DNA of 64,000 nucleotides from the IMG/VR virus record IMGVR_UViG_3300008107_000017, positions 1-64,000 of that record; one strand, given 5' to 3'. This stretch comes from a virus. Of this stretch, positions 12,778 through 27,724 are shown piece by piece. How positions within the stretch are numbered: position 1 is the stretch's first letter; the number at the start of each line of letters is the position of its first letter. The position numbers and the translations under genes were made by a program. The notes under the pieces were generated by a model. The model had not been told where the DNA came from and made no database searches. It worked only from the letters and a program-made list of their open reading frames with translations.

Positions 12778-13518
12778 ATGAAAAAATACATTTTAGGGCC
12801 TTGCTCATTAGAGAGTCAAGAAATTTGTAAACAAGTATTAGATGATCTTTATCCTGCTATGCAGGGTAAAGATTGGTACTTTAAAGGTTCTTTTGATAAA
12901 GCAAATAGAACATCGGTATATTCAAACAGAGGACCTGGATTAGAAGAAGGTCGTGAGATCTTTGCATGGATAAAAAATACATATCCAGGTGTTAAGACAT
13001 TAACTGATATTCATGAACCTTGGCAGGCTAAAGAGCTTCATCATTTAATTGATATGATACAAATTCCTGCATTTCTTTGTAGGCAAACAGATCTTATTAT
13101 TGAATGTGCAAAATGGTTTAATGAAATTAATGTTAAGAAAGGTCAGTGGCTTGCACCTGAGGCAATGGAACATGTTGTAAATAAGATAAGAGAAGTAAAT
13201 CCTAAAGCTAGAGTTTACATAACCGAAAGAGGAACTTCATTTGGTTATAGTGGTTTATTACCTGACTTTAGGGCCGTGGATATTCTTAAATCATTTTCTG
13301 ATGGTGTAATACTTGACTGTACTCATTCAACACAAAAGCCAAAGGGTGATACTACAGGCGGTGATAGAGAACTTGCTAAGAAGTATGCTCTTGCTGCAAA
13401 AATCTTTGAATACGACGGTGTCTTTATCGAAACTCACCCAAATCCAACTAAAGCAATATCTGATGCTGATAGCCAAGTTGAACTAGGATGGTTGTTGTCA
13501 CGGATAAATAATATATGA
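12778..13518 (+). CDS. kdsA: KDO-8-phosphate synthase
   Basis: GPCSLES, SFDKANRTS, QIPAFLCRQTDL, KKGQ, ERG..FGY, DCTHSTQ, ETHPNP..A.SD. Confidence 0.92.
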   Translation: MKKYILGPCSLESQEICKQVLDDLYPAMQGKDWYFKGSFDKANRTSVYSNRGPGLEEGREIFAWIKNTYPGVKTLTDIHEPWQAKELHHLIDMIQIPAFLCRQTDLIIECAKWFNEINVKKGQWLAPEAMEHVVNKIREVNPKARVYITERGTSFGYSGLLPDFRAVDILKSFSDGVILDCTHSTQKPKGDTTGGDRELAKKYALAAKIFEYDGVFIETHPNPTKAISDADSQVELGWLLSRINNI

Positions 13519-14009
13519 TAACTAAAAAATCTGCTGGTCTTGCAATAATTTATAAAGGTATGATTCTGCTAGGTCATACTACAGGCCGTGGGTGGTGGTC
13601 ATCGTATGGTATTCCTAAAGGTGGAATAGAAGAAGGTGAAGATAAATTATCGGCTGCAATCAGAGAAACATATGAAGAAGTTGGAATCAAAGTTCCTCTT
13701 TCTTTAATTGATACTACCGAACATACATTTACCTTAACATCAAGAGAGCATAAGTTTAATAAGATAGTTTCTTATTACATTGTTAAAATTGATGATCTTT
13801 CACAAATAGGTCTTAAAGATATTAAAGTACCTAAGTCTCAATTACAAGTTGAAGAAATAGACTGGGCCGGTTTTTTACCTTATAAGGAAGCCATGAAGAG
13901 AGTAATGAAATCTCAAGTGAGCTTAATAACCAACTTAATGGGAAAGGGACTACTTGAATCTAATCTATTATCATATGAGCAATTTATTAAATCAACCAAT
14001 AAATTATAA
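13515..14009 (+). CDS. NUDIX hydrolase
   Basis: Nudix box PKGGIEEGEDKLSAAIRETYEEVG. Confidence 0.88.
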   Translation: MITKKSAGLAIIYKGMILLGHTTGRGWWSSYGIPKGGIEEGEDKLSAAIRETYEEVGIKVPLSLIDTTEHTFTLTSREHKFNKIVSYYIVKIDDLSQIGLKDIKVPKSQLQVEEIDWAGFLPYKEAMKRVMKSQVSLITNLMGKGLLESNLLSYEQFIKSTNKL

Positions 14010-15057
14010 TGATCTACTTGGTCGTGATCCAATTCAGACCGATTTAGATAATATTGAAAAATTTATAAAGGGGAAGAGAGTTCTTGTAACTGGTGGGTGT
14101 GGATCAATAGGTAGTGAAATTGTTAGACAGCTTGTTAAATTTAAAGCTTCAACTATTATCGTATATGATAATGCCGAAACTCCTCTTTTTTATCTTGAAC
14201 AGGAAATTTCCAAAATAGCCAAAGATGTTCATATTCGTTATGTAATTGGCGATGTTAGGGATAAGGGAAGACTTGAGGAAATATTTGAAAGCTTTAAACC
14301 TAATGTAGTCTTTCATGCATCTGCATATAAGCATGTTCCTATGATGGAAAGAAATCCTATTGAAGCAATTAAAACAAATGTTTTAGGAACAAAGAATGTT
14401 GCAGACACTGCTTATTATCATAATGTTGAAAAGTTTGTAATGGTTTCAACTGATAAGGCAGTTAACCCAACTAACATTATGGGTGCAACGAAAAGAATTG
14501 CTGAAATCTATACACAATTCTTAAATGAAAAATCTAATACTTCATTCATTACAACTAGATTTGGTAATGTATTAGGATCTCGTGGATCTGTTATACCTAC
14601 CTTTGTTGAACAGATAAATGCAGGAGGTCCGGTGGAAGTAACACATGAAGAAGTTATTCGTTACTTTATGACAATCCCCGAAGCATGTCAGCTTGTATTA
14701 CAGGCATCTTCAATAGGTAAAGGCGGTGAAATCTTTATCTTTGATATGGGAGAACCTGTAAAGATTATGGATCTTGCAAAAAACTTAATTAAGTTATTAA
14801 ACAAACCTGAAATTCCAATTAAAATAATTGGATTAAGACCAGGAGAAAAACTATATGAAGAGCTTTTATGTAATGGTGAAAATCAAATACCAACAGATGA
14901 TCCAAATATAATGAAGCTTAAACACACTGATATTGACTTTAAAAGAGTTATGCCAGATATTGAAAGACTTGCAAAATTAAGAGATAATGATTTTTATAGA
15001 ATTATTTCACTTGTTAAAAACGTGGTACCAGAATTCAAAAGAGAAACTGAATTATGA
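13975..15057 (+). CDS. UDP-GlcNAc 4,6-dehydratase (PglF/CapD catalytic domain)
   Basis: LLGR, VTGGCGSIGSE, HASAYKHVP, STDKAVNP..MGATKR, RFGNVLGSRGSV, GLRPGEKLYEEL. Confidence 0.9.
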   Translation: MSNLLNQPINYNDLLGRDPIQTDLDNIEKFIKGKRVLVTGGCGSIGSEIVRQLVKFKASTIIVYDNAETPLFYLEQEISKIAKDVHIRYVIGDVRDKGRLEEIFESFKPNVVFHASAYKHVPMMERNPIEAIKTNVLGTKNVADTAYYHNVEKFVMVSTDKAVNPTNIMGATKRIAEIYTQFLNEKSNTSFITTRFGNVLGSRGSVIPTFVEQINAGGPVEVTHEEVIRYFMTIPEACQLVLQASSIGKGGEIFIFDMGEPVKIMDLAKNLIKLLNKPEIPIKIIGLRPGEKLYEELLCNGENQIPTDDPNIMKLKHTDIDFKRVMPDIERLAKLRDNDFYRIISLVKNVVPEFKRETEL

Positions 15058-15587
15058 TAAACATATACGGAAAAGGTGGGCATGCAAAAATGATTGCTTC
15101 ATTGCTTAATGAATCATATACATTTTATAATGATGCTGATTATACCAGAGCGGGAGATCACCCTTGGATAATTGCAATAGGTGATAATAGATCAAGGAAA
15201 TTTGTGGCTAATATTAATCTTAAGGATGTTGACTACATAACAGTAGATCAAGGAGTTTATGTTGCTGCAGAATATGTTGGCGTTGGTGTTCAAATTGCAC
15301 CAGGTGCTGTCATCCAAAATGGTGTAATTATTAAGGATCATACAATCATAAATACATCTGCATCGGTTGATCACGACTGTATTATTGGAGAATATTGCCA
15401 CATTGCACCAAACAGTACATTATGTGGAGCGGTTGAAATAGGAGATGGTACTCTTATCGGAGCAGGATCTGTTATTTTACCTGGGATAAAAATAGGTAAG
15501 AATTGTATAATTGGCGCTGGTAGTGTTGTAACTAAAAACATCCCGGATAACTCTAAAGCATTTGGAAATCCGGCAAAAATAAAATAG
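15054..15587 (+). CDS. Sugar N/O-acetyltransferase (PglD/NeuD family)
   Basis: YGKGGHA, AIGDN..R, INT.A.VDHDC, hexapeptide repeats, GNPAK. Confidence 0.88.
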   Translation: MINIYGKGGHAKMIASLLNESYTFYNDADYTRAGDHPWIIAIGDNRSRKFVANINLKDVDYITVDQGVYVAAEYVGVGVQIAPGAVIQNGVIIKDHTIINTSASVDHDCIIGEYCHIAPNSTLCGAVEIGDGTLIGAGSVILPGIKIGKNCIIGAGSVVTKNIPDNSKAFGNPAKIK

Positions 15588-15588
15588 T

Positions 15589-16695
15589 ATGAAAAGAATT
15601 TATCTTTCTCCTCCTCATATGTCAGGTAAAGAGTTGGGGTATATTAAAGAAGTATTTGATCAAAATTGGATTGCCCCAATAGGACCTCATTTGACAAGAT
15701 TTGAAGAAATCACTAAAGAATATACCGGAGCAAAATATGCAGTGGCTGTTACATCAGCAACCGCAGGTTTGCATCTTGCCTTAAAGGCTGTTGGTGTAGA
15801 AGAAGGTGATTATGTAATCTGCTCAACATTAACATTTGCAGGTACGGTTAATCCTATTAAGTATATGGGAGCAAATCCAGTTTACATTGATAGTGAACCT
15901 ACATTTTGGAATCTGGATCCTATTTTATTAGAAGGTGCAATACTTAATTTACCAAAGAAACCAAAAGCAATTATTCCTGTGCATTTATTTGGTGTACCTT
16001 GTGAAATGGATGCTATAAGAAAAATTGCAAACGAGTATGATATTCCTATTATTGAGGATGCTGCAGAAAGTCTAGGATCAACTTTCAATGGAAAACATAC
16101 CGGTACTTTTGGTGACATTGGCGTCTATTCTTATAATGGAAATAAACTTCTTACGACATCAGGTGGTGGTATGATAGTAACTGATAATGAAGAGTATGCA
16201 ACCTATATGAGATATCTTTCTACGCAAGCAAAAGATCCTCTTCCCTATTATTGGCATACAGAGGTTGGTTATAATTACAGATTAAGTAATGTTCTTGCTG
16301 CTATCGGTATAGGCCAAATGGAAGTTATTGAAGATCGCATTAAGAGAACTCGTGAAATTAATGAAATCTATAGAAAAGAGGTTGGAGAATTCTTTTTAGG
16401 ATTCCAATCAGAAAGACCTAATGATAGATCAAACATGTGGTTAACATGTGCAGTATTGCCAATTGAATACAAACCAGAAGATCTTATTGAACACTTAGAA
16501 AAATCAAATATTGAATCTAGAAGAATCTGGTGTCCAATGCATCAACAGCCTGCATATACACCGGCTCATAAATATATAAATGGAACATCTGATATTCTAT
16601 TTCAATACGGTATTTGTTTACCTTCAGGAACTAGTATGACAGATGAAGAACTTTATAAAGTTATAGAAGAAATAAAAAAATTCTTTAGGAAATGA
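15589..16695 (+). CDS. PLP-dependent sugar aminotransferase (PglE/DegT family)
   Basis: LSPPHM, IIEDAAESLG, SYNGNKLLTTSGGG, GYNYRLSN, CLPSG. Confidence 0.9.
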   Translation: MKRIYLSPPHMSGKELGYIKEVFDQNWIAPIGPHLTRFEEITKEYTGAKYAVAVTSATAGLHLALKAVGVEEGDYVICSTLTFAGTVNPIKYMGANPVYIDSEPTFWNLDPILLEGAILNLPKKPKAIIPVHLFGVPCEMDAIRKIANEYDIPIIEDAAESLGSTFNGKHTGTFGDIGVYSYNGNKLLTTSGGGMIVTDNEEYATYMRYLSTQAKDPLPYYWHTEVGYNYRLSNVLAAIGIGQMEVIEDRIKRTREINEIYRKEVGEFFLGFQSERPNDRSNMWLTCAVLPIEYKPEDLIEHLEKSNIESRRIWCPMHQQPAYTPAHKYINGTSDILFQYGICLPSGTSMTDEELYKVIEEIKKFFRK

Positions 16696-17591
16696 AATTA
16701 ATTTCATATGATGATTTTCTGCTAATTGAAAATTACATTGGTCCTAACTTCGAGGTTTTACTTGAAAAAAATCTAACCAGTGAAATTGACAAAAAGATTA
16801 AGTTTGGTATAGTAATGCCAACTCATAAAATAGCAGATGGTGGTGCTCAGGCCGGCAGACAAAAGTTTATGGATACACCATCTTTATTAAGAGATTCATT
16901 AGGTTGTATAAAGGATCAAAAGTATGACAATTATGTAGTCTATCTTGTTGGAGATTCATACGACGGCGATGATGAAATTAAGGAAGTCATGGAAGAAATT
17001 ATTCCTAAAGGAAAACTTAAGTATCATAATCTATCTACGCCCGGTGAAAGAAATAAAGGATTTTCAAAAGAACAATTTAGGTTTACTGCAGGATGCGGTG
17101 CAATGAATAAGGGGTTACAGATGGCTAAGTCTGATGGTATTGATTATATTGTTAGAATTGATCATGATGATAAATGGACGCCTGATCACTTAGAACTTTT
17201 GGCTAAAGCATATACACAGTATCCTGAACTTGCATATGTATTCACAAGAAGTCGTAAAAAGGTAGACGCAACAAATTCTTCTAAGAAGTATATGTATCAA
17301 CCTAATGATGATAGACACACCGGTACAATTGAACCTAATAATTTAGGCTATACCCATGGTGATGTTAGCCACTCTGCGGTATCATGGAGACCTAGTATGA
17401 TAGGTGATCCTAGATATCGTGACGCTGAAGAACAATCAAAAACTGAACCTAAAATTCCTATGACTAAAACGGCACCTGCTGATGTTGATATGTTTAGCAG
17501 AATGATGAAAATTATCAAGGATAAAGGGCATAAGTATATGTACATACCTAGATTGACCAGCTTTTATCGTAACCGCAAAGGAAAGTTCTAA
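16692..17591 (+). CDS. GT2/GT-A glycosyltransferase with N-terminal extension
   Basis: IVMPTH, MNKGL, RIDHDDKW..DHL (DxD motif). Confidence 0.78.
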   Translation: MKLISYDDFLLIENYIGPNFEVLLEKNLTSEIDKKIKFGIVMPTHKIADGGAQAGRQKFMDTPSLLRDSLGCIKDQKYDNYVVYLVGDSYDGDDEIKEVMEEIIPKGKLKYHNLSTPGERNKGFSKEQFRFTAGCGAMNKGLQMAKSDGIDYIVRIDHDDKWTPDHLELLAKAYTQYPELAYVFTRSRKKVDATNSSKKYMYQPNDDRHTGTIEPNNLGYTHGDVSHSAVSWRPSMIGDPRYRDAEEQSKTEPKIPMTKTAPADVDMFSRMMKIIKDKGHKYMYIPRLTSFYRNRKGKF

Positions 17592-17648: not shown

Positions 17649-17825
17649 ATGGAAAAATTTAATGAAATTAAAGCAATCATCGAATCAGTATCTGATGATG
17701 TAGAAAAATTCTATGTAAAAGGAAATAAGGCTGCTGCCGTAAGAATTCGTAAAGCTATGCAGGATATCAAAAATCTTTCGCAAGAGTTAAGAGTTCACGT
17801 ACAGGAGACTAAGAATAATCTTTAA
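17649..17825 (+). CDS. Histone H1-like small basic protein (Hc1 family, Bacteroidota type), 58 aa (not in the ORF track)
   Basis: MEKFNEIKAIIESVSDDVEKFYVKGNKAAAVRIRKAMQDIKNLSQELRVHVQETKNNL carries the GNKAA..R.RK signature; has its own promoter-like GAATATATA and terminator. Confidence 0.8.
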   Translation: MEKFNEIKAIIESVSDDVEKFYVKGNKAAAVRIRKAMQDIKNLSQELRVHVQETKNNL

Positions 17826-17865: not shown

Positions 17866-17899
17866 AGAAGGGGCCATCGAAAGATGGTCCTTTTCTTTT
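17866..17899 (+). terminator. Intrinsic terminator
   Basis: agaaggggccatc-gaaa-gatggtccttttct followed by Ts. Confidence 0.8.
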
Positions 17900-17966
17900 A
17901 TAAAAAGTCCTATTTGCTTAAAACCTTTTTCAATATCTTTGTATAATAATAAATTCAAAGATAGCA

Positions 17967-18524
17967 ATGAAGAAGTGCTTAATTATAGATTTTGATGATA
18001 CTTTAGTAAAGACTATTGATGTACATGCAGAATCATGGCAACATGCTCTTGAGCGGGTATTGGATATTGAAATCCCGATTGAAAGCATACATGCTGATAT
18101 TAATTATGGAATGGATGTTCTATTAAAAAAATATCAACTATCCGAAGAAGAATCATTATTAGCACAAGAATATAAAAAAGATATATTCTCAAAAATGATT
18201 CATAGAACTCAGGTGAATCATTTATTACATTATGTTATAAAGAATCACTATCCTAAAAAATGTATTATAGCATCAAATTCTTCCAGAGAAAATGTTGATA
18301 AAATAATGGCATATCATGGAATTGATCCTAATCTATTTTTAGGAATTTATACTAGAGAAATGGTTTCTAAAAAGAAACCTCATCCTCAAATGGGGGAACT
18401 TATTTTTAATGATCATACTTCACATAGATGGAATAGAGAAGATTACCTAATGATAGGTGATTCTGAAGTTGATTCTACTTTTGCACGTAAACTTGGTATT
18501 GAATGTCTGATAGTAAAATTTTAA
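17967..18524 (+). CDS. HAD-family phosphatase/phosphomutase
   Basis: DFDDTL, IASNS, KKPHP, IGDS..D motifs. Confidence 0.82.
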   Translation: MKKCLIIDFDDTLVKTIDVHAESWQHALERVLDIEIPIESIHADINYGMDVLLKKYQLSEEESLLAQEYKKDIFSKMIHRTQVNHLLHYVIKNHYPKKCIIASNSSRENVDKIMAYHGIDPNLFLGIYTREMVSKKKPHPQMGELIFNDHTSHRWNREDYLMIGDSEVDSTFARKLGIECLIVKF

Positions 18525-19249
18525 TAGGAAACAGCGGGGATAGAGTATATCTCCACGAGGATCATGTAATTAAAGAAGCTGGAGTTTATCCTGAAAAGTT
18601 TAAGCAGCAGATGGATTGGCTTATTAATTGTCCACATCCTAACTTTATTAAGATTGATCCTATTGGTGAATTTTCATATAGAATGAAAAAGTTTCCAACA
18701 TGGTATGATCAAATTTGTGATCAACCTATTACAAAGTCTGTATCTCAATTAGAGGATCTTATTCAAATAATCAATAAGTTTGAAGGATATGGTAAAGATG
18801 TTGATACCAGATCATATCTTGATAAATTAGAAGGAAGAACCGGTTATTATTATGAAGGTAAACTCGATGGTGTTTCTAAATGGGGTTTTGTACATGGAGA
18901 CTTAACCGTAAGTAATATTCTTTATGATAATAAATTTATCTTTATTGATCCTAGGGGTACCGAAGAACAAGATTATTATGACTTTGGTAAACTTATGCAA
19001 TCGTTTGTGATGGAGTATGAAACCCATATATACAATAACCAAAGTACAAAATATTCAAGGTTTTGTAAAGAAGCTGAAAAGATTATGTATGAATGGTACG
19101 ATGAGTATCTTTTGAAATTTTATTTAGCGGTACATCTCTTAGGAGCTGTTCCATTTTTTGAATTGAATGAAAGATATGAATTGGCAGGTACCTTCCTTAA
19201 AAAAGGTCACGAGTTATTTAATGAACTTGAAATAAAATATTCAAAATGA
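18503..19249 (+). CDS. APH/choline-kinase-like phosphotransferase (probable sugar or small-molecule kinase)
   Basis: HGDLTVSNIL (Brenner motif), FIDPRG, YDFGKL. Confidence 0.75.
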   Translation: MSDSKILIGNSGDRVYLHEDHVIKEAGVYPEKFKQQMDWLINCPHPNFIKIDPIGEFSYRMKKFPTWYDQICDQPITKSVSQLEDLIQIINKFEGYGKDVDTRSYLDKLEGRTGYYYEGKLDGVSKWGFVHGDLTVSNILYDNKFIFIDPRGTEEQDYYDFGKLMQSFVMEYETHIYNNQSTKYSRFCKEAEKIMYEWYDEYLLKFYLAVHLLGAVPFFELNERYELAGTFLKKGHELFNELEIKYSK

Positions 19250-19950
19250 GTAGAGTAAAAAAGGCAATTATCCTGGCTGCTGGAAAATCAACCAGATACG
19301 GATCAAATAAATTAATTGATCCTATTCTCGGTAAATCAACAATTCAGTATTGTATTGAATTTTGCATTGAAAATGGAATTGAAGAAGCATACATAACAAT
19401 CAGTAAATCAGACTTCTTCTTTAAGAATAACATTAAGTTATCTCATCCTATTATTGAATCTTTATCACAATATAAAGATAAGATAGATATTTACTATGAA
19501 TTCCAAAAGGATGACGAGTATGGTCCTGGTGCTGCTATTAAAGCATGGCAAGGTGCCTTTTATGAACCGTTCCTTTGCCTATTTGGTGATAACTTTTATC
19601 GTGGAAATATTGGATTAGAATATCATGATCCTAAGAAGAGTGTAATTACCTATAGAGATTATGAAACGCGAGCAAGGAATCTCCAATTGGCAACTATCCT
19701 AGATAACGTGGTTGTGGAAAAACCGCACGGTGTAGTAAGCGGTAGATATTTTTGTGGTTATATGATATTTGCAAAAGAAGCATTTGATAATTTAAGCAGT
19801 ATTAAATTATCTAATCGTAATGAATATGAAATTACCCATCTTATCAATTCAATGAATAACCTGGATATTCAACATCTTGATATTGATTGGTATGATTTAA
19901 CATATGAACAAGATAAAAAAGTAATTGAAGAATTAATCCAAGCTAAATAA
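19246..19950 (+). CDS. Sugar-1-phosphate nucleotidyltransferase (RmlA-like)
   Basis: AIILAAGKSTR..NK, LFGDN, VEKP, S.R.EYEIT, W.D motifs. Confidence 0.85.
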   Translation: MSRVKKAIILAAGKSTRYGSNKLIDPILGKSTIQYCIEFCIENGIEEAYITISKSDFFFKNNIKLSHPIIESLSQYKDKIDIYYEFQKDDEYGPGAAIKAWQGAFYEPFLCLFGDNFYRGNIGLEYHDPKKSVITYRDYETRARNLQLATILDNVVVEKPHGVVSGRYFCGYMIFAKEAFDNLSSIKLSNRNEYEITHLINSMNNLDIQHLDIDWYDLTYEQDKKVIEELIQAK

Positions 19951-19951
19951 T

Positions 19952-21199
19952 ATGAAAGAAAATGTAAAAAAGGTAGGCTTCTTTAAACTTGGCAAGGCTA
20001 TTAAGTTTAATGAAAATAGTTGGAATGCGATTGGCGGAGATTGTGAACCTAAACAATTAATCTGTGCAATTGCAAAAAGAAATCCTAATGTCGAGTATTG
20101 GCTTCTTAGTCCAAATGATTTAGGAAAGGTTAGAGCAAAAGAAAAACCTAAAGCAGCACCTCTGTTTGGACCAGCACCAGAATCATCAAATACGATTCCT
20201 TCTAATATTAAGGAATTTCATTCTAAAATGGATGAAAGAAAATCAACCGAAGAAACAGTTGAAACTATTAAGTCATTAGGATTAGACTATATCTTTTTCT
20301 ATACAGGACCGGCAAGTACTGTAAATATTGAAAACTTTATTAATAAGGTTGATGGTACTGGTACTGTTAAGTCATTAGACTTCTTTAAGTATTATGCTGC
20401 ACCAATTATTAAGGCTCTTAATGAAATGCCAAAGACTCCTATTGTAGGTCTATTGGTTGATAATAGATTTATTCTTGCTGCAAAAGATTATCAGGCTCAT
20501 AACCGCCCTACTTATTATCTTGCACAGAATAATTTTGAATTGGATGAAGAGTATTTTTGTAATCCACCTACTCGTGAAACTGCAAAGATACATTCTACTT
20601 TTGAATATTCAGGAATTGAAACGGTATTCTTATTAGATAAGAAAAGATATAACATTGATGAATTATTTAATATGAAAAAGACTAATTCATTTATGATGTT
20701 ACAGAATCAAGGTAAAGGTTCCGGCGGAATGGATCGTTGGGATCCTGTTAGAGAATACATTGTTAAAACTGGTGTTCAAACCGATATCTATGGTAAATGG
20801 GATGAAGAATTGGTTCAACAATACCCTAATTACTTTAAGGGGGAAATGAGAATTGAATCTTTAACTAAAGAACTCCTTAACACTAAATATACATTCTGCG
20901 TTCCTATTAAAGAGGGTATGGTCACTTCTAAGTATGCTGAAATGCTGCACTATGGTATTATACCTTTCTTACATCCATCCTACGATACTGAATGTAATGT
21001 GTTTCCAAAGGATCATTTTATTCGTTGTAAATCACCTGAAGATCTTAAAAAGAAAATTGAGTATCTAAACGAAAACCCAGAGCATTATAAAACTTTATTC
21101 TATAACCTTCAAACTAAATATCTAAAAGATTCATATTATACCGGTGAACATGTTGATAACAAGATCTGGGAAGCATATGAACGCGTAACTCAAAATTAA
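19952..21199 (+). CDS. GT-B glycosyltransferase, probably T4 beta-glucosyltransferase-like DNA-modifying enzyme
   Basis: N-terminal KVGFFKLG..GGDCEP and C-terminal VTSKYAE.....IPF....YDT......FIR..SPEDL..KI..L resemble my recollection of the T4 BGT fold signature; needs profile confirmation. Confidence 0.6.
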   Translation: MKENVKKVGFFKLGKAIKFNENSWNAIGGDCEPKQLICAIAKRNPNVEYWLLSPNDLGKVRAKEKPKAAPLFGPAPESSNTIPSNIKEFHSKMDERKSTEETVETIKSLGLDYIFFYTGPASTVNIENFINKVDGTGTVKSLDFFKYYAAPIIKALNEMPKTPIVGLLVDNRFILAAKDYQAHNRPTYYLAQNNFELDEEYFCNPPTRETAKIHSTFEYSGIETVFLLDKKRYNIDELFNMKKTNSFMMLQNQGKGSGGMDRWDPVREYIVKTGVQTDIYGKWDEELVQQYPNYFKGEMRIESLTKELLNTKYTFCVPIKEGMVTSKYAEMLHYGIIPFLHPSYDTECNVFPKDHFIRCKSPEDLKKKIEYLNENPEHYKTLFYNLQTKYLKDSYYTGEHVDNKIWEAYERVTQN

Positions 21200-21206
21200 T
21201 TATAAA

Positions 21207-22229
21207 ATGTATAACAAAGAAACGAGAATCCTTATTACTGGTGGAGCCGGTTTTGTTGGAACAAATTTTATTAACGATCTCTTAAAACGAGGTCATAATC
21301 CAGACTGCATTGCGGTTGTAGATAATCTTTCACATGGTACTTATTTACCACAAGTTCATGACAGGATTAAAAACTTTTATCAGGAAGACATCCGTAATGA
21401 GTATGTAAAGAGTATCATTTCTGAATTTAAGCCTGAATACATTTATCACTTTGCAGGTCTTGTTTCAATTTATGATTGCCATGCTAATCCTTATGAAGCT
21501 GTTGATAATAACATTCTAGGTAGTATTAATATCCTAGATGCAGCAGCGGAGAGCGGAGTTAAAAGAATCATCTTTAGTGAAACTTCAGCGGTTTATGAAA
21601 ATGAATTAATGGCCCCTACTGGGTTTCACGAAGGTCAATCTGATCCTACTACAATTTATTCTACAACTAAAGCATGTCTTGCACTATTAGCAGAATCATA
21701 TTCACGTACAAAGGGTGTTAATTATACTGCTCTTCGTTACTTTAATGTAGCAGGCCCTCTTCAGGATTATAATAGAACGGTACCTCCGGTTTTTGCAGGT
21801 TTTATTATTCGTCTAATGGGTGGTAAGAATCCTATTATCTTTGGCGATCCTATGAAGGCAAGAGACTACATCGACGTAGATGACGTAAATGCCTTTCATA
21901 TGTTATGCATGGAAAATGAAGAAACTGCTAATCAAACATTTAATCTAGGTACTGGTAAAATGACAACCTTAGCGGATCTTAAAGATATCATCGGTAAGGT
22001 TATGGGAATTGAAACTGTTAATTATGACCAATATGGTGCTATTGCCGGTGAGGCTCTTAATATTCGTGCTGATATATCTAAAGCAAAATCTATGGGATGG
22101 GAACCTAAAAAGAGTATGGAAGATACAATTAAAGAAACCATTACATATCTAGAAGAAGAGGTAAAGAAAGGTAACATAGATCCCTATACATTTATGGAGG
22201 ATCTTCAAATTGAAAAAGTTAAAATATGA
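21207..22229 (+). CDS. NAD-dependent NDP-sugar epimerase/dehydratase (extended SDR)
   Basis: ITGGAGFVG, YSTTK (YxxxK), LRYFNVAGP, RDYIDVDDV. Confidence 0.9.
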   Translation: MYNKETRILITGGAGFVGTNFINDLLKRGHNPDCIAVVDNLSHGTYLPQVHDRIKNFYQEDIRNEYVKSIISEFKPEYIYHFAGLVSIYDCHANPYEAVDNNILGSINILDAAAESGVKRIIFSETSAVYENELMAPTGFHEGQSDPTTIYSTTKACLALLAESYSRTKGVNYTALRYFNVAGPLQDYNRTVPPVFAGFIIRLMGGKNPIIFGDPMKARDYIDVDDVNAFHMLCMENEETANQTFNLGTGKMTTLADLKDIIGKVMGIETVNYDQYGAIAGEALNIRADISKAKSMGWEPKKSMEDTIKETITYLEEEVKKGNIDPYTFMEDLQIEKVKI

Positions 22230-23488
22230 GTAAAGAAATTAAATGGGGTACAATTATTCCCCTTATCGGTGGAAGTGCAATAGGTTGTTCTAGGTCAGCT
22301 GAATCTAAACCTGCATTTCATTTAAGTTATGAAGCATTTGCTGCAAATGAAAGTCATATAGAAAGATATTGGGAAGGTATTCCTATGTATCGTTTAGATC
22401 ACCCTGAACTTGAGATTCCTAATAATACATTTGAAAATGTTGATTATGTAAACTCTGTATGTCCATGCGCAGGTCTTAGTCTACTTAATTCTGCTAGAGG
22501 TAGTGCCGCTTCTCGTGGATCTGACGCGGTTCAAAATAAATGGATGTATGAATCATCTGAATATATTTTAGAACACGTAAAACCTAAAGTTCTTTGGGGT
22601 GAAAATGCGCCAGGTCTTTTTACTAAAATGGGTGAAGGTGTAGTTCGTAGGCTTAAGGAAATTGCTGAAAAACATGGTTATAGTTTTTCTCTTATTAAAA
22701 CTAATACTGAATTGCATGGTATTCCTCAAAGAAGAATCCGTACATTCTATTTCTTTTGGAACACTCCAACTGTACCTATGTTGGATTGGAAATTTAGGGA
22801 AAGAAAAACTTTATTAGAATATCTAAATGAAATTCCTGAAGATGCAACTCTACAAGATATGTTTATGGTGGATGGAAAAGTAACTGACCACTTTAGACCT
22901 TATGAATTTATTCTTGAAAAGAAAGGTTTAACTCATGCAGAATTTGCTGCGGAATTTAAGAAAGGTACCATTGCACAATATCTCGATGAACATAAACTAA
23001 TTGATGAATGTATCTCTTGGTTACAAGAAAAATATCCAAAGGAAGGATTTTCTAATAAGAAAAGTACTAAAACGTTTATTGATATGCTCCAACACCAACA
23101 GGCTAAAGTTGATGATGGAAAAGGATATTGGGATGCATCTCCACACTTTTTCCATGATTCTTTTTCTGCTCTTATCGGAAGAAATATGTTTAACGGCGTA
23201 CACCCTGTAGAAAATCGTTATCTTAATGTAAGAGAAATGTTACATCTTATGGGTATGCCTCATGATTTTGAAATTCAAGATTCTCGCCACATAAATCATA
23301 TTGCACAAAATGTGCCAGTAAGAACTGCGCAGGATATGGCTGATGAGGTTAAAAAATTCTGTCAAGGTACTGCTAAAATGACACAGTATAAATTCATGAA
23401 GCAGGACAATACCTTAAATAAAATAATTGAAGTTGAAGAACTTAATCAAGAACCTAAAAAAAGATATAAAGTAAACAGTGTAATATGA
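22226..23488 (+). CDS. C5-cytosine DNA methyltransferase-like protein with atypical motif I
   Basis: Motif IV PCAGLS, VI ENAPGL, VIII GIPQRRIR, IX HP...RYLNVRE, X QNVP; motif I reads IPLIGG rather than FxGxGG. Confidence 0.8.
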   Translation: MSKEIKWGTIIPLIGGSAIGCSRSAESKPAFHLSYEAFAANESHIERYWEGIPMYRLDHPELEIPNNTFENVDYVNSVCPCAGLSLLNSARGSAASRGSDAVQNKWMYESSEYILEHVKPKVLWGENAPGLFTKMGEGVVRRLKEIAEKHGYSFSLIKTNTELHGIPQRRIRTFYFFWNTPTVPMLDWKFRERKTLLEYLNEIPEDATLQDMFMVDGKVTDHFRPYEFILEKKGLTHAEFAAEFKKGTIAQYLDEHKLIDECISWLQEKYPKEGFSNKKSTKTFIDMLQHQQAKVDDGKGYWDASPHFFHDSFSALIGRNMFNGVHPVENRYLNVREMLHLMGMPHDFEIQDSRHINHIAQNVPVRTAQDMADEVKKFCQGTAKMTQYKFMKQDNTLNKIIEVEELNQEPKKRYKVNSVI

Positions 23489-24495
23489 GAGAAAATGCAT
23501 TAGCGATTGGCGTTTCTAGCCATGAGTTTATGAACATTCTTTTAACATACTATCCTAAGGATGTTCAAGAAAATTTTGATATTTACCTTTTCTTAGATGA
23601 TACTAAAGTCACCGAGGAAAGTGTAAGAGAAGTTATAGGTAATCATAATATTGAATCATTCAAGAATGCAACCTATATCAGTATTAAGGGCGTATATGAT
23701 TATTATGTAGAGAAGCATGAGTATGAAGGTAAGGCTAAAGAATTCCTTTATACTCATGGCTGTCTATTTAAGGCTTTAATGCCAATGTATCTTTTAGATA
23801 AGTATAAAGTTAAAAGAACCTATGTTTCAGATGATGATGTATTTATCTTTAATGATTTAAGTTATATGTTTACCGAATACCAAGAGTTCGGTTATAAAAA
23901 AGAAAATCTTTTTAATCTAAGAAATGCTGATAAGTATGAAGTACTTTCTGCATTTAATGAAATCTTTGAAAGTAATTTTACATTAGAAGAAATGAATGCA
24001 TTATCAATTAATGCAGGAAATGTTATTTATGGCCATGATCCTAAAATGGAATATTACTTTCAAAGATTTATGAATCACAAGATGGTACATCACCTATTCT
24101 TTGATTTTGTAGGATATACGAGTTGGACTGTAGAACAGAGGTTCCATCATTTTAACTTTCATAGACTTAGAAAGGAAGGCAGAACTGTAAATATGTTAAA
24201 GAGTAAAGATCTTCGTCTTATGCAAAATGTTGATAAGGAAGCTCTTGCTAATAATATACAGCCTCTTTATCTAAAGCAAGTTACACCGTCACTTTTGCAT
24301 TATCCTATTGGAACAAAGAAGCCTATTTTCTTACGTCAGTTCTTACGAGGAATTGAGTGGAAGTTTGGATTTGAATATCAACCTAAATATGAATTGAAGG
24401 ATATCTTATATGATGAATCATGGAGACCTCCTGCATTTAAAGCAGTTCAAAGTAAAATGAAAAAATCTGCAGTTAAAGTGTCATCTGTCTTTTAA
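23485..24495 (+). CDS. Putative GT-A (GT8-like) glycosyltransferase
   Basis: YVSDDDVFI (DxD), INAG, EQ and LLHY motifs. Confidence 0.55.
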   Translation: MRENALAIGVSSHEFMNILLTYYPKDVQENFDIYLFLDDTKVTEESVREVIGNHNIESFKNATYISIKGVYDYYVEKHEYEGKAKEFLYTHGCLFKALMPMYLLDKYKVKRTYVSDDDVFIFNDLSYMFTEYQEFGYKKENLFNLRNADKYEVLSAFNEIFESNFTLEEMNALSINAGNVIYGHDPKMEYYFQRFMNHKMVHHLFFDFVGYTSWTVEQRFHHFNFHRLRKEGRTVNMLKSKDLRLMQNVDKEALANNIQPLYLKQVTPSLLHYPIGTKKPIFLRQFLRGIEWKFGFEYQPKYELKDILYDESWRPPAFKAVQSKMKKSAVKVSSVF

Positions 24496-24541: not shown

Positions 24542-25291
24542 ATGGAAACCACAATTAACAAAATCGATGCATACGAATTAAGTTCGTTTGTTAAGAAGCT
24601 TCTTCCAATTGATAAATTCATCTTTATGAAGATTGGTAAGGAAGGAACCGTTTCATCAGTATATTTTCCTGAGAGAGATGCGGTTAAATTAGTTAACACG
24701 CCAACAAAGGATATCTTTGATGCAGAGATTAGTTCCCCGCTCAAGGTAAGCTTTTATAATGGGAGTAAAGTAATTGATGCTCTTACTCATTTTAACGGAG
24801 ATGTTAAAGGACGTATCAGATATACTGAATACGATGGAGAATTAATGGCAAGTGATTTTATCTTAGAAAATGATGATCTTCAAATCAGTCTTGCTTGTAC
24901 CGATCCTTCACTTTCTTTTATGGAAATGAGTAAAGAAGAAACTGATCGTGCCTTTGGTACCGATAACAAAATGTTTGAATTTGATCTTCTTACTACTCAT
25001 GTAGATAAAATGAAATCATTGTTTAACCTTGATAAGGATGAAGATACTTTTACTATTTACACAAGTAATAAAGGAATCTGTATCAAAGGTTCTTCATACG
25101 ATGCTACACTTTGTCATACATTTGAAAGTAATGTTGATAGCGGTGCAAAGGTGGTTATTTACAAAAAGTATTTGAACCTTCTAGATAAGGAAAATTACAA
25201 GGTAATGGTATGCGAGAATAAAGTAGTATTTCGTTCATTAGATACTAATACGCATCTTACTGTAGCCGTTGCTATTACTGATGAAGAATAA
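24542..25291 (+). CDS. DNA polymerase sliding clamp (gp45-like)
   Basis: 249-aa acidic alpha/beta protein directly upstream of the polymerase C-terminal gene, with a C-terminus of YKVMV...VVF...VAV typical of T4-like clamps. Confidence 0.6.
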   Translation: METTINKIDAYELSSFVKKLLPIDKFIFMKIGKEGTVSSVYFPERDAVKLVNTPTKDIFDAEISSPLKVSFYNGSKVIDALTHFNGDVKGRIRYTEYDGELMASDFILENDDLQISLACTDPSLSFMEMSKEETDRAFGTDNKMFEFDLLTTHVDKMKSLFNLDKDEDTFTIYTSNKGICIKGSSYDATLCHTFESNVDSGAKVVIYKKYLNLLDKENYKVMVCENKVVFRSLDTNTHLTVAVAITDEE

Positions 25292-25410: not shown

Positions 25411-26529
25411 ATGACTGAAGAGATACAACAGATTAAAGAAGAGGCTTCCAAATATTATAACTATGAACAGGCTGTTAAGCTAATGCTTAACTCTATTTAT
25501 GGTGCATTTGGTAATCCTTACTTCTATTTCTTTAATGTTGATATTGCGGAAACTATTACTCTTCAGGGAAAGGATGCAATTCTCTACACTGAAAAACTAA
25601 TTAATAAATACTTCCGTGAATTTTGGCATAAAGATTTAGAAACCCATAAACAAATGGGTATTACTGTCACTGGTAAAATTGAAAAACCAGTAGGTATTTA
25701 TATTGATACGGATTCAATCTATGTTAAGTTTGATGAAGTTATTGAAAAATCTGATTGGTCTGGCAACGAAAAGGAGTTTATTCTTAACCTCTATAAAACT
25801 AGGTTAGCAGATTATATTGAAAAGATTCTTCAGAAATATGCTGATGATAATAATGCTGAAAACTTCTTAAGCTTTGAATTGGAGAGTATTGCTAAAAATG
25901 CAATATGGCTTGCCAAGAAAAAGTATATGCAAAACATTGTATGGAAAGATCCTGATATTCATTATGATGAACTAAGTAAAATTAGTGCCAAGGGGTTTGA
26001 GATTATTCAATCATCAACCCCACAGTTTGCAAGAGAGAAACTAAAGGAACTGTTAACCTATATCTTTTCAAATAACCAACTAAATATGAAAGAGTTTGCC
26101 GCTTTATTAAAAGATATTAAGAGGCAGTTTAAACTTGCAAATATTGATCAAATTAGTTTCTCTAAAAAGGTTAATAACTATCAAAACTACATTATTAATG
26201 ATTATGATCAATTTGAAATTGGTTCTAAATGCCCAATAGGTGTAAGGGCTGCAGGTTATCATAATTACCTTTTGAATAATAACAATAAACTTAAAGGAAA
26301 GTATAAGCCTTTAGGAAACGGTGAAAAATTAAAAATGTACTTTTCTACTGATAAATCATGTGATGTATTTGCATATACTCCGGGCGAATATCCTTATGAA
26401 TTTTCACCTCAAGTAGATTATGATGTACAATTTGAAAAGACAATTTTAGATCCAATAAATAGAGTAGTAACTGCAATGGGATTTAAGGGATTTAATAGAA
26501 ATCTTATTTATACAACGAGTTTATTCTAA
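25411..26529 (+). CDS. Family-B DNA polymerase, C-terminal subunit (motifs B and C, thumb); split gp43B-like
   Basis: KLMLNSIYGAFG (motif B), ITLQG, YIDTDS (motif C), KKKY, KGFE...SSTP. Confidence 0.92.
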   Translation: MTEEIQQIKEEASKYYNYEQAVKLMLNSIYGAFGNPYFYFFNVDIAETITLQGKDAILYTEKLINKYFREFWHKDLETHKQMGITVTGKIEKPVGIYIDTDSIYVKFDEVIEKSDWSGNEKEFILNLYKTRLADYIEKILQKYADDNNAENFLSFELESIAKNAIWLAKKKYMQNIVWKDPDIHYDELSKISAKGFEIIQSSTPQFAREKLKELLTYIFSNNQLNMKEFAALLKDIKRQFKLANIDQISFSKKVNNYQNYIINDYDQFEIGSKCPIGVRAAGYHNYLLNNNNKLKGKYKPLGNGEKLKMYFSTDKSCDVFAYTPGEYPYEFSPQVDYDVQFEKTILDPINRVVTAMGFKGFNRNLIYTTSLF

Positions 26530-26542
26530 AAATAAATAAAAT

Positions 26543-27724
26543 ATGGAAAAAGACAAAAAGTTCAGAATACACGTTTTAGGTTTACCTCATACTAAAACAA
26601 CTAAAGATTTTACTGCTTGTGCCTATACACAAAAGGCATGGAAGTTTTGTAAAATGATGAAATCACGAGGACATTACTTAATGCATTATGGTCATGAAGA
26701 TTCTAACCCGGATGCAAATGAAAACATCACAGTAATTACAAATGATGTTTGGGAAAAGGTTTATGGAAGTCATGATTATAAGACTCATTTATTTAAGTAT
26801 GATACACAGGATGAAGCATATCAAACATTTTATAAAAATGCTATTCAAGAAATAGAAAAGAGAAAACAACCCGGTGATATTATTTTGCCTTTCTGGGGAT
26901 CTGGTGTTCGTCCTATCTGTGATGCCCACCCTGATTTATGTATTATTGAACCAGGCATTGGATATGCAGGTGGTATGTGGTCAGTATTTAAGATCTTTGA
27001 ATCATATGCAATTTACCATGCGTACTGCGGTTTAGGTAATGTAAGTATGTGTCGTCAGAGCTGGTATGACCAGGTTATTCCTAATTATTTTGATCTTGAC
27101 GAATTTGAATATTCAACAAAGAAAGAAGACTACTTCCTTTATGTAGGCCGTGTATATGATGGTAAAGGTGTTAATATTGCAATCCAGGCAACCGAGGCAA
27201 TTGGAGCAAAGCTTAAAATAGCCGGACAAATTGGTGATGAATTTTATACAAAGAATCCGTGGCCTAAACACGTTGAATTCATTGGATATGTTGATGCAGA
27301 ACAGAGAAAGAATTTAATGAAAGGCGCAATTGCATCATTCTTACCTTCAATGTATGTTGAACCTTTTGGTGGAGTTCAAATTGAAAACCTATTATGTGGT
27401 ACTCCAACAATTACGACTGATTGGGGTGCATTTGCTGAAAATAATATTCATGGTGTAACTGGATATCGCTGCCGTTCTTTTGAAGATTTTGTTAAAGCCG
27501 CTCGCGATTGCCAAGCTGGTAAAATTAAATCTATCGATTGCCGTAAGCATGGCGAAAACTTCTCTCTTGAGGCAATTGCTCCAAAATATGAAAAATATTT
27601 TAGAGAAGCCTTATATGTAACACTAGATAAAGGTTGGTACACAATAGAAGATCCAGAATTATATACTAAAAAATGGGTTGAAAAAATGTATTCTACTAAT
27701 AGAGGGAAAAAAAAACCAGAATAG
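26543..27724 (+). CDS. GT4-family glycosyltransferase
   Basis: LYVGR...KG, EPFGGVQIE...GTP.ITTDWGAF.E. Confidence 0.85.
   Translation: MEKDKKFRIHVLGLPHTKTTKDFTACAYTQKAWKFCKMMKSRGHYLMHYGHEDSNPDANENITVITNDVWEKVYGSHDYKTHLFKYDTQDEAYQTFYKNAIQEIEKRKQPGDIILPFWGSGVRPICDAHPDLCIIEPGIGYAGGMWSVFKIFESYAIYHAYCGLGNVSMCRQSWYDQVIPNYFDLDEFEYSTKKEDYFLYVGRVYDGKGVNIAIQATEAIGAKLKIAGQIGDEFYTKNPWPKHVEFIGYVDAEQRKNLMKGAIASFLPSMYVEPFGGVQIENLLCGTPTITTDWGAFAENNIHGVTGYRCRSFEDFVKAARDCQAGKIKSIDCRKHGENFSLEAIAPKYEKYFREALYVTLDKGWYTIEDPELYTKKWVEKMYSTNRGKKKPE

Follow-up and report, generated by a model that had tools for sequence, protein, structure and literature searches.

The seven genes at positions 17967-24495 of the analysed window, a 64,000-nt stretch covering positions 1 to 64,000 of the virus record IMGVR_UViG_3300008107_000017, very probably form a DNA hypermodification operon, as the initial annotation had proposed. 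In the reading that we favour, to which we give a probability of roughly 0.6, the operon would carry out the post-replicative half of a cytosine hypermodification of the T-even type, in which a synthase encoded further along the same genome would supply 5-hydroxymethyl-dCMP and the operon would add sugar to the hydroxymethylcytosine in DNA.

The seven tightly packed, co-oriented genes described initially were all recovered at the same positions of the + strand as abutting ORFs, with successive junctions of -22, -4, +1, +7, -4 and -4 nt. Their products are, in order, a HAD phosphatase, an APH-like kinase, a sugar-1-phosphate nucleotidyltransferase, a GT-B glycosyltransferase, an SDR epimerase, a C5-methyltransferase-fold protein and a DxD protein (ORF7). 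The first ATG (17967) lies 3' of an intrinsic terminator (17867..17894, + strand; 12-bp stem with 5 GC pairs and a T-run), situated downstream of an Hc1 histone-like gene, and of a promoter-like site (17918..17947, + strand; TTAAAA-18-TATAAT, with an AAAC..TATAAT arrangement); the promoter placed ahead of the operon is to be read as a consensus match only (10/12). The source is an uncultured, T4-like freshwater phage. The block is located in a replication-gene cluster, between the N-terminal (8480-9886) and C-terminal (25411..26529, + strand; phrog_1918 7e-67, PF00136 3e-19) halves of a split family-B DNA polymerase. Of the two replication genes annotated downstream, the polymerase half was solidly identified, whereas the gp45-like sliding clamp (24542..25291, + strand) is a candidate suggested by language-model neighbours only (gp45-slide_C at 0.93-0.94), with no HMM or PDB match. 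When neighbourhood conservation was checked in the loci of close relatives (51 loci; 73-99% identity in the methylase-like protein), the order HAD-APH-NT-GTB-SDR-MT was retained in those that extend far enough (29 of the 51).

The absence of TET and hydroxymethylase genes from the 64 kb, as noted in the initial annotation, was literally true, but the record runs on to 139.8 kb and, 14 kb after the end of the window, contains a thymidylate-synthase homolog (78254-79135). A hydroxymethylase elsewhere in the genome had been named beforehand as a finding that would refute the original proposal by making the pathway a known one, and this homolog is, as predicted from its sequence, such an enzyme. 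The homolog matched PF00303 at 78290-78988 (3.5e-26), and a separate true ThyA (1.6e-88) is present in the same record. Its best PDB relatives were the CMP hydroxymethylase MilA (3e-25) and the T4 dCMP hydroxymethylase (1e-23), followed by thymidylate synthases (4e-11). Its alignment, in E. coli ThyA numbering, displayed C146, L143D, D169 and N177D, the full 5-hydroxymethyl-dCMP synthase signature; Asp at 143, 169 and 177 separates this enzyme from 5-hydroxy-dCMP synthase or thymidylate synthase (PMC13326640). Guanylate-kinase-like and thymidylate-kinase-like genes lie immediately upstream of it, and an NTP pyrophosphohydrolase (7965..8459, + strand; phrog_173 1.5e-17, phrog_18650 dUTPase 2e-8) is a candidate dCTPase/dUTPase that may deplete dCTP. 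Since the same genome encodes a synthase homolog with this signature, the hydroxymethylcytosine acceptor is most likely made before replication, as in T4. TET was found in no record searched, Tet_JBP being absent from the phage's own record and from those of five relatives, two of them at least 97% complete; the phage record is ~45% complete by CheckV, so that the absence of TET, CmoA or a T4-type dCTPase applies to its sequenced part.

According to the favoured reading, the synthase homolog, as predicted from its sequence, would make 5-hydroxymethyl-dCMP, which the adjacent nucleotide kinases, and probably also the 7965 pyrophosphohydrolase, would channel into DNA in place of cytosine. The activated sugar would be built via the route known from RB69-type phages, with the APH-fold kinase phosphorylating a sugar phosphate at C1, the HAD phosphatase removing the other phosphate, the nucleotidyltransferase yielding the NDP-sugar and the SDR epimerase then altering it. 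The BGT-like GT-B enzyme would transfer this sugar onto the hydroxymethyl group in DNA, and ORF7, perhaps with neighbouring glycosyltransferases, may lengthen the glycan.

The C5-cytosine-methyltransferase-fold enzyme (22226..23488, + strand; PF00145 6e-19), referred to here as PLIGG-type, was modelled by AF2 with a pLDDT of 90, and Foldseek matched the model to MET1, HaeIII and HhaI. The motifs IPLIGG, CPC, ENAP, QRRIRTF and AQNVP were present as described earlier, and the view that the catalytic motifs are retained and the cofactor motifs rebuilt was borne out. PF00145 aligned only over profile positions 54-324, leaving the motif I-III region unrecognised. In the family, P12, G15, C81, E126, Q168, R170 and R172 are invariant, giving the signature PLIGG, PC-Ala/Ser, ENA and QxRxR. 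Most likely, the enzyme acts on C5 of DNA cytosine, is catalytically intact and forms part of the hypermodification pathway, without being the source of the primary acceptor. Among distant phage loci, a synthase with D143/D169/D177 lies within 10 kb of the methylase-like gene in 26 of 36, and the gene immediately upstream of the latter is often BGT-like, AGT-like (PF11440) or 5-hmdU-DNA-kinase-like (PF18723). Bacillus phage G has the same gene set.

The alternative that survives best, although we consider it rather doubtful, takes the PLIGG-type enzyme for a SAM-dependent 5-methylcytosine methyltransferase of the ordinary kind whose motif I has diverged, and which would add a second protective layer by methylating specific sites or leftover cytosines that were not replaced. 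The full two-domain C5-MTase fold with an intact Rossmann half, the retention of every catalytic motif and of the motif X Asn, and a C-terminal tail that resembles that of the polymerase, as would fit mopping-up coupled to the fork, are all consistent with it. The transcriptome of a copepod, an animal in which a hydroxymethylcytosine pathway is not expected, includes homologs of ~52% identity that share the MIPLIGG motif, which suggests that the family can work on ordinary DNA. Nevertheless, the positions that correspond to the adenine-stacking Phe of motif I and to the ribose-binding Glu of motif II do not conserve these residues, and the Pfam and Dcm profiles leave the N-terminal 60 residues unaligned. 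Furthermore, all 38 family members have Ala or Ser directly after the catalytic Cys, in place of the Gln82 that is important for methyl transfer by M.HhaI, and a generic methylase would not be expected to be so strictly linked to genes for hydroxymethylases and for the O-modification of hm-pyrimidines. In the favoured T-even-style scheme, the PLIGG-type enzyme would act on cytosine C5 at the replication fork, either mopping up cytosines that escape replacement or acting on hydroxymethylcytosine via a remodelled, enlarged pocket. A point against this scheme is that a C5 enzyme would have no obvious substrate if hydroxymethylcytosine fully replaced cytosine.

A dedicated NDP-sugar supply had also been proposed, and profiles and alignment assigned all four of its enzymes, encoded on the + strand. 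The HAD protein (17967..18524; PF13419 6e-21) is a predicted sugar-bisphosphate phosphatase with an AfhF-like role, by analogy with PMC13326640. The APH-fold protein (18503..19249), a predicted anomeric sugar(-phosphate) kinase, gave a weak Pfam match (PF01636 0.008) and a match to phrog_21938 (4e-11), and its HGD/IDPRG core aligned (4e-7) with the kinase half of a 506-aa fusion protein (L058) that joins NT and APH in a related locus; 82% of the length of this fusion shows homology to bifunctional AfhE-type proteins from Mosigvirus-type phages. The nucleotidyltransferase (19246..19950; TIGR03992 1e-16, TIGR01208 9e-15, PF00483 3e-6) and the SDR NDP-sugar epimerase/dehydratase (21207..22229; PF01370 5e-44, galE model 1e-42, phrog_540 3.5e-61) complete the set. 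The combination of HAD, kinase and nucleotidyltransferase follows the logic of UDP-arabinose synthesis (PMC13326640).

The operon lies within a more extensive sugar island (about 12.8-28.6 kb), also on the + strand, which starts with a KDO-8-phosphate synthase (KdsA, 12778..13518; NF003543 268 bits, cut-off 242; PF00793 1e-43) and continues with a PseB/PglF-like NDP-HexNAc 4,6-dehydratase (13954..15057; PF02719 2e-119, TIGR03589 1.5e-66), a NeuD/PglD-type sugar N-acetyltransferase (15054..15587; TIGR03570 5e-47), a LegC/PseC-type sugar aminotransferase (15589..16695; PF01041 2e-98, TIGR04181 3e-115), a GT2-family glycosyltransferase (16692..17591; PF00535 5e-11) and, past the operon, a GT4-family glycosyltransferase (26543..27724; phrog_3408 1e-163, PF00534 4e-19). 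Because these typical surface-polysaccharide enzymes (KdsA, PglF/E/D-like, GT2, GT4) are encoded together with KdsD-like and KdsB-like genes elsewhere in the genome, some or all of the sugar genes could be devoted to glycosylating the cell surface or the virion. The stronger proposal, that the island remodels the host envelope or glycosylates virion proteins and not DNA, its proximity to replication genes being incidental and the methylase-like gene unrelated, seems improbable to us, even though ~65% of phage GT-containing contigs lack a neighbouring base-modification gene (Pyle et al., bioRxiv 10.1101/2023.12.21.572611). The GT-B protein (19952..21199, + strand) argues against it, the closest solved structure being a DNA enzyme: in the Foldseek check of its AF2 model (pLDDT 93) against the PDB, the top four matches were all T4 beta-glucosyltransferase (1qkj, 8.5e-12), with moderate TM-scores (0.55-0.72). 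The modelled fold supports its assignment as a BGT-like, putative DNA glycosyltransferase; its Pfam match was weak (4e-5), and at the level of sequence it did not match the Pfam family of BGT. In unrelated phages, homologs of the GT-B gene lie directly beside the methylase-like gene and beside hydroxymethylase genes, the latter in Enterococcus phage 9183-type genomes and metagenomic phages, and in the VPE25 group the glycosylation of cytosine has been shown experimentally (PMC4999554). Other lineages hold AGT-family DNA glucosyltransferases in the same slot, and the position of the block between the polymerase halves likewise speaks for DNA as the substrate.

ORF7 (23485..24495, + strand) occupies a variable slot, being present in ~29 of the 51 close relatives' loci, and is possibly a second, GT-A-like transferase. 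Of the DxD region reported for it, the DD pair (D117-D118, inside SDDDV) was found to be invariant; the GT-A identity rests only on this motif and on language-model neighbours (Atlas features, Nucleotid_trans/GT8 at 0.96), no Pfam, PHROG or PDB sequence match having been obtained.

The original proposal made the methylase-like enzyme the source, via an altered cofactor, of a non-methyl C5 group on which the glycosyltransferases would act. It can draw on an invariant PLIGG beside a variable acidic motif II position, on the Ala/Ser after the catalytic Cys (in M.HhaI, Q82A lowers methyl transfer ~16-fold and favours larger groups; PMC3526304) and on natural C5-MTase homologs that use carboxy-SAM (PMC12783734), but it is very unlikely, given the hydroxymethylase-type enzyme in the genome and at 26/36 distant loci, the presence of CPC and Asn362 where CmoX has SPPC and an Arg at the HhaI N304 position, and the lack of a CmoA in the 140 kb of the record. 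As the acceptor would already be supplied by the synthase homolog flanked by nucleotide kinases, the methylase-like enzyme is not needed as its maker, though it may still use an altered cofactor or have a non-methyl role.

In the T-even pathway, glucosyl-hydroxymethylcytosine is produced by the gp42 dCMP hydroxymethylase, the gp1 dNMP kinase, the gp56 dCTPase and alpha/beta-glucosyltransferases. Here too, 5-hydroxymethyl-dCMP would be made ahead of replication by a thymidylate-synthase homolog whose active site bears the same signature, and the two systems would also have in common nucleotide kinases nearby, a transferase of BGT fold and a T4-like replication module. However, T4 takes its UDP-glucose from the host, and the present phage has genes of its own for an NDP-sugar supply and an epimerase; its GT-B is only a distant structural relative of T4 BGT, extra transferases are present, and the C5-methyltransferase-fold enzyme has no counterpart in T4.

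The Afh arabinosyl-5-hydroxycytosine pathway of RB69, DLP3 and HY126 (PMC13326640) has, like the present system, a phage-encoded NDP-sugar supply made up of a HAD phosphatase, an APH-fold kinase and a MurU/RmlA-like nucleotidyltransferase, and it too combines GT-B DNA transferases with a kinase and a thymidylate-synthase homolog; the NT-APH fusion of the related locus has the architecture of AfhE. Because the synthase here keeps Asp169, 5hmC rather than 5hoC is expected by the D169N diagnostic (PMC13326640). Unlike in the Afh pathway, kinase and transferase are separate genes, an SDR epimerase and the methylase-like enzyme are added, and the arabinose-5-P isomerase homolog of this genome may belong to a KDO route instead.

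Phage clusters of C5-MTase, TET/5mYOX and glycosyltransferase genes were reportedly described by Burke and colleagues in 2021, and are also covered by Pyle et al. These clusters likewise group a C5-methyltransferase-fold gene, an epimerase and glycosyltransferases, and the neighbours named by Pyle et al. include genes for clamp, polymerase, APH and epimerase. They differ from the present system, which lacks TET/JBP in the six records mentioned above, would obtain its hydroxymethyl group from a nucleotide-level synthase and has a methylase-like enzyme with non-canonical cofactor motifs. Finally, CmoX, the DNA cytosine C5-carboxymethyltransferase of Synechococcus phage S-B43 (PDB 8YF3; PMC12783734), is a phage C5-MTase homolog with non-methyl chemistry via an altered cofactor and ranked 23 among the structural matches of the methylase-like model. 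Besides its distinctive SPPC and Arg, missing here, CmoX keeps the canonical adenine- and ribose-binding residues (PMC12783734), which the PLIGG-type family does not conserve.

The seven co-oriented genes at 17967-24495 proved to be real ORFs that abut or overlap one another, as the initial annotation had described them. Directly upstream, a gene for a 58-aa Hc1 histone-H1-like protein (17649-17825; PF07432, 3e-22) is followed by a strong terminator (17867-17894), and a promoter-like site (17918-17947) precedes the operon. Four products could be assigned to families with good support (HAD phosphatase, SDR epimerase, nucleotidyltransferase and C5-methylase fold); support was weaker in the case of the APH-like kinase and of the GT-B enzyme. 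The assignment of the last gene, ORF7 (23485-24495), as a GT-A enzyme was only suggestive, and no match was obtained for it in profile searches against Pfam, PHROG, NCBIfam and PDB profiles. The sliding-clamp candidate (24542-25291) gave neither an HMM nor a PDB sequence match. The cassette is a portion of a larger sugar island, which includes genes for KdsA (12778-13518), a NUDIX hydrolase, a PglF/PseB-like dehydratase, a PglD-like acetyltransferase, a LegC-type aminotransferase and a GT2 enzyme upstream of the operon, and for a GT4 enzyme and a short GT-B-like ORF downstream. Additionally, a KdsB-like cytidylyltransferase (genome positions 92983-93567) and a KdsD/GutQ-like SIS protein resembling the arabinose-5-P isomerase KdsD (138538-139161, 1e-46) were detected; together with KdsA they make up most of a CMP-KDO pathway, spread over the phage genome.

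The neighbourhood was compared in the loci of 51 close relatives, whose methylase-like proteins are 73-99% identical. The order HAD phosphatase, kinase, nucleotidyltransferase, GT-B, SDR and methylase-like gene, followed by the clamp candidate and the C-terminal half of the polymerase, was kept wherever the locus extended that far (29 of the 51). ORF7 was present in about 29/51 of these loci and therefore occupies a variable slot.

The source is an uncultured T4-like phage with a G+C content of about 33%, and the window is the opening 64 kb of an IMG/VR record of 139,776 bp, estimated to be about 45% complete. It encodes a family-B polymerase in two parts (8480-9886 and 25411-26529), together with UvsX, a DnaB-like helicase, a ribonucleotide reductase and a sigma factor of its own. 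Near-identical DNA was found in 20 public sequencing runs from 15 studies, corresponding to lake or freshwater metagenomes, some of them labelled fungus metagenome, and no RNA dataset was listed among these runs. A megablast search of the operon against deposited phage genomes gave no match. At the start of the window, positions 2-2275 reach 53% G+C and encode a collagen-repeat protein with an S74 peptidase chaperone domain at its C-terminus, probably a tail fibre; foreign DNA was rejected as the source of this jump, since Gly and Pro codons account for the composition.

It had been proposed that the methylase-like enzyme (22226-23488) must create the acceptor by installing a glycosylatable group on cytosine C5, neither a TET protein nor a hydroxymethylase being in view. 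Nevertheless, when the whole record was searched for the thymidylate-synthase family, two genes were found, a true ThyA (1.6e-88) and a homolog at 78254-79135. Among PDB relatives, the protein encoded by the latter was closest to the MilA CMP hydroxymethylase (3e-25) and the T4 dCMP hydroxymethylase gp42 (1e-23), whereas ordinary thymidylate synthases reached 4e-11. Its active site, NKDFVC...MRSNDLILGTPTD, was aligned in ThyA numbering to give D143, D169 and D177. According to Lee et al. (NAR 2026; PMC13326640), who used the numbering of E. coli ThyA, N177D leads to the cytosine substrate, L143D/E to a hydroxymethyl product and D169N to 5-hydroxycytosine. The phage protein has all the signature residues of a dCMP hydroxymethylase (C146, L143D/E, N177D and D169 kept), and from D143, D169 and D177 it is predicted to make 5hm-dCMP. 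A 5-hydroxycytosine chemistry (5ho-dCMP synthase, D169N) was rejected, since Asp is kept at position 169. The presence of a dCMP-type synthase in the same record, an outcome named beforehand as refuting, overturned the proposal that the methylase-like enzyme must supply the acceptor. The TET part of the earlier statement stood, as no match to TET/JBP (PF12851) was obtained in this record of about 45% completeness, nor in those of five relatives, including 100%- and 97%-complete ones; the TET-dependent route (MTase, TET (5mYOX) and GT) was rejected on these grounds.

Immediately upstream of the synthase gene are a guanylate-kinase-like gene (phrog_1815, 2e-34) and a thymidylate-kinase-like gene (phrog_761, 3e-16), candidates for the dNMP kinase that would phosphorylate the modified nucleotide. 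Within the window, an NTP pyrophosphohydrolase gene (7965-8459; phrog_173, 1.5e-17) and the sigma factor gene adjoin a gene for a homolog of formamidopyrimidine-DNA glycosylase/endonuclease VIII (7121-7918; TIGR00577, 4e-26). The pyrophosphohydrolase is a candidate for a dCTPase that would keep dCTP out of the DNA. Furthermore, an ATP-grasp ligase-like gene (genome positions 79102-80103; locus L002:2313-3314) overlaps the 3' end of the hydroxymethylase gene, and a NodU/Nol-like carbamoyltransferase gene (106009-107166; locus L001:145-1302; phrog_1601, 4e-91) is situated just upstream of the true ThyA. Either product could carry out a further decoration of the base or the sugar.

The GT-B protein (19952-21199) was modelled with a pLDDT of 93, and the four best PDB matches of the model were all T4 beta-glucosyltransferase, with every cell-wall or small-molecule GT-B enzyme ranking below them. 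This bore out the likeness to T4 beta-glucosyltransferase originally noticed; at the sequence level, the protein matched neither the BGT nor the AGT family of Pfam. Sequence relatives of this protein adjoin hydroxymethylase homologs in 9183/VPE25-type Enterococcus phages and in Pseudoalteromonas phage XG4. The DNA of phages VPE25 and VFW is resistant to bisulfite and MspI and sensitive to PvuRts1I, which indicates glycosylated cytosine (PMC4999554).

With respect to the sugar donor, the HAD phosphatase, the APH-fold kinase and the nucleotidyltransferase are encoded by three adjacent genes. In RB69, DLP3 and HY126, arabinose-5-P is converted into UDP-arabinose by the HAD phosphatase AfhF together with AfhE, in which a nucleotidyltransferase and an APH-fold kinase are fused (PMC13326640). 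A nucleotidyltransferase-APH fusion was also found at a related locus (L058), beside hydroxymethylase, GT-B and methylase-like genes; it is homologous to AfhE-type proteins across 82% of its length, and its kinase half aligns with the operon kinase. By analogy with the Afh logic, we infer that the three operon enzymes would supply an NDP-sugar. The KdsD-like isomerase could feed an arabinose route or the KDO route implied by KdsA and the KdsB-like gene.

The AF2 model of the methylase-like protein (pLDDT 90) was matched by Foldseek to MET1, M.HaeIII, M.HhaI and DNMT1 over both domains (values of 1e-12 to 3e-13 for the first three), and the protein matched PF00145 at 6e-19. The two-domain C5-methyltransferase fold and the catalytic motifs IV (PC), VI (of the ENV type), VIII (QxRxR), IX and X are all present. 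When 38 members of the family, with identities down to 30%, were aligned, C81, E126 (the Glu of ENxP) and Q168, R170 and R172 (QxRxR) were invariant, as were the Gln and Pro of the QNVP sequence of motif X, the Asn being nearly so. Motif I was invariably PLIGG; the canonical FxGxGG was absent from the 38-member alignment, and the acidic residue of motif II was not conserved, the position after beta-2, which holds the ribose-binding Glu in canonical enzymes, being variable (E/T/N/K/S/P). The unusual cofactor motif alongside retained catalytic motifs, recognized earlier in this one protein, is a property of the family. Because the profile comparison with E. coli Dcm gave an alignment over motifs IV-VIII only, the equivalence of residues in motifs I-III rests on secondary-structure position; the N-terminal 60 residues were aligned neither by Pfam nor by the Dcm comparison.

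The residue after the catalytic Cys was Ala or Ser in 38/38 members and never the Gln of PCQ. In M.HhaI this residue, Gln82, stands beside the transferred group, and the Q82A change reduces methylation about 16-fold and favours larger groups (PMC3526304). Carboxymethylation of the type carried out by CmoX from Synechococcus phage S-B43 (PMC12783734) was rejected, since the protein has CPC instead of SPPC, and Asn362 where CmoX has Arg (the N304 position of HhaI). CmoA (TIGR00740), the partner of CmoX, gave no match in the 140-kb record.

The strongest clue on this family is its genomic company. More than 2000 database relatives were found, in genomes including T4-like, jumbo, cyanophage and Bacillus phage G genomes. 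A synthase with D143/D169/D177 was located within 10 kb of the methylase-like gene in 26 of 36 distant loci; the rest were incomplete, or of the clamp/polymerase type described here with the synthase elsewhere in the genome. In Bacillus phage G, the methylase-like gene, an alpha-glucosyltransferase, a nucleotidyltransferase, a HAD phosphatase and the synthase are all within 15 kb, and in cyanophage S-TIM54 a dCMP-type thymidylate-synthase homolog is 2 kb from the methylase-like copy. The gene immediately 5' of the methylase-like gene, often with abutting stop and start, encodes a BGT-like GT-B enzyme, an AGT-family DNA glucosyltransferase or a 5-hmdU DNA kinase helical-domain protein; AGT-family genes fill the GT-B-equivalent slot in other lineages, and two tandem methylase-like paralogs occur in one lineage. 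Given the linkage to the synthase, these O-modifying neighbours and the lack of TET/JBP in the five related records, the family belongs with nucleotide-level hydroxymethylcytosine pathways and not with the TET route. Since the GT-B and methylase-like genes abut in several lineages, a complex of the two proteins was also predicted, and the score of 0.00 speaks neither for nor against binding.

In jumbo-phage-sized contigs the gene for the 5-hmdU DNA kinase helical-domain protein precedes the methylase-like gene, with inositol-1-P-synthase-like, FkbM methyltransferase and SDR genes alongside, and another lineage has a single block made up of an AGT-like gene, a GT-B gene and a tandem pair of methylase-like paralogs. 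Examples of 5-hmdU-kinase-like and AGT-like neighbourhoods are L080:8541-9995 and L088:7093-12378 (positions within loci). Outside phages, several transcripts of 640-670 aa, about 52% identical to the phage protein, were found in the transcriptome of the copepod Neocalanus flemingeri (EukProt EP00092; P0049, P0083, P0040 and P0070). They keep MIPLIGG, CPCAG and QNVP and carry long C-terminal tails with Cys/His zinc-finger-like pairs; a CXXC zinc finger was observed on one metagenomic relative. These homologs may derive from a phage-to-animal (or animal-virus) transfer.

As regards function, the intact apparatus for covalent catalysis is more in keeping with an enzyme than with a scaffold. The boldest reading, with a probability of roughly 0.3, is that the PLIGG-type proteins form a novel class of DNA-modifying enzymes linked to the nucleotide-level hydroxymethylcytosine routes. 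They would use the covalent Cys-C6 mechanism and an enlarged pocket for a reaction other than methylation, perhaps at the fork and tethered to the clamp. The PLIGG-type enzyme might hydroxymethylate leftover cytosines in DNA, or activate 5hmC (or a phosphorylated or glycosylated form of it) for group exchange at the 5-methylene. Alternatively, the protein may be an ordinary SAM-dependent methylase acting on residual cytosines, as favoured by the intact C5-methyltransferase fold and by the 52%-identical copepod transcripts that carry the same motif. It may also use the enlarged pocket for chemistry other than methylation, with cytosine or 5hmC as substrate; C5-methyltransferases without SAM are able in vitro to add or remove hydroxymethyl groups and to exchange the hydroxyl of 5hmC. 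A role as maker of the acceptor is now unnecessary.

Tethering to the clamp is hinted at by similar C-terminal tails, ...K.xS(V/L)(I/F), in the methylase-like protein (...YKVNSVI), ORF7 (...VKVSSVF) and the polymerase C-terminal half (...YTTSLF), which may be a sliding-clamp-binding signal. The pattern, basic and then S-hydrophobic-hydrophobic, was also observed on the exonuclease at 49525-50739 and on many GT-B relatives elsewhere (...KSKSLF), and it was matched by 80% of the ORF7 family versus 8/136 genome ORFs. One of these eight + strand ORFs encodes a head-closure protein; therefore chance matches occur and the motif is not specific.

Strong constraint acts on the methylase-fold enzyme, and its gene is consistently linked to those for hydroxymethylcytosine, although the carbon that such enzymes normally target should be occupied beforehand. 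Identifying what it catalyses could uncover a DNA base, or a natural use of C5-methyltransferase chemistry, that is new, and could provide an enzyme with which 5hmC can be labelled or read.

Since glycosylation of hydroxymethylcytosine is already known as a defence of phage DNA against restriction and CRISPR, the operon extends a known theme, bringing it to an abundant T4-like lineage of fresh water that encodes its own supply of sugar donor. The pathway is predicted to operate in the manner of the T4 glucosyl-hydroxymethylcytosine system, but with a private supply of sugar as in RB69; the PLIGG enzyme embedded in the operon and the additional transferases would make it a new version. The likeness to the T4-type pathway lies in the dCMP-type synthase signature, and that to the Afh-type pathway in the APH-fold kinase, the nucleotidyltransferase and the HAD phosphatase; it differs from the latter in that Asp169 is kept in the synthase.
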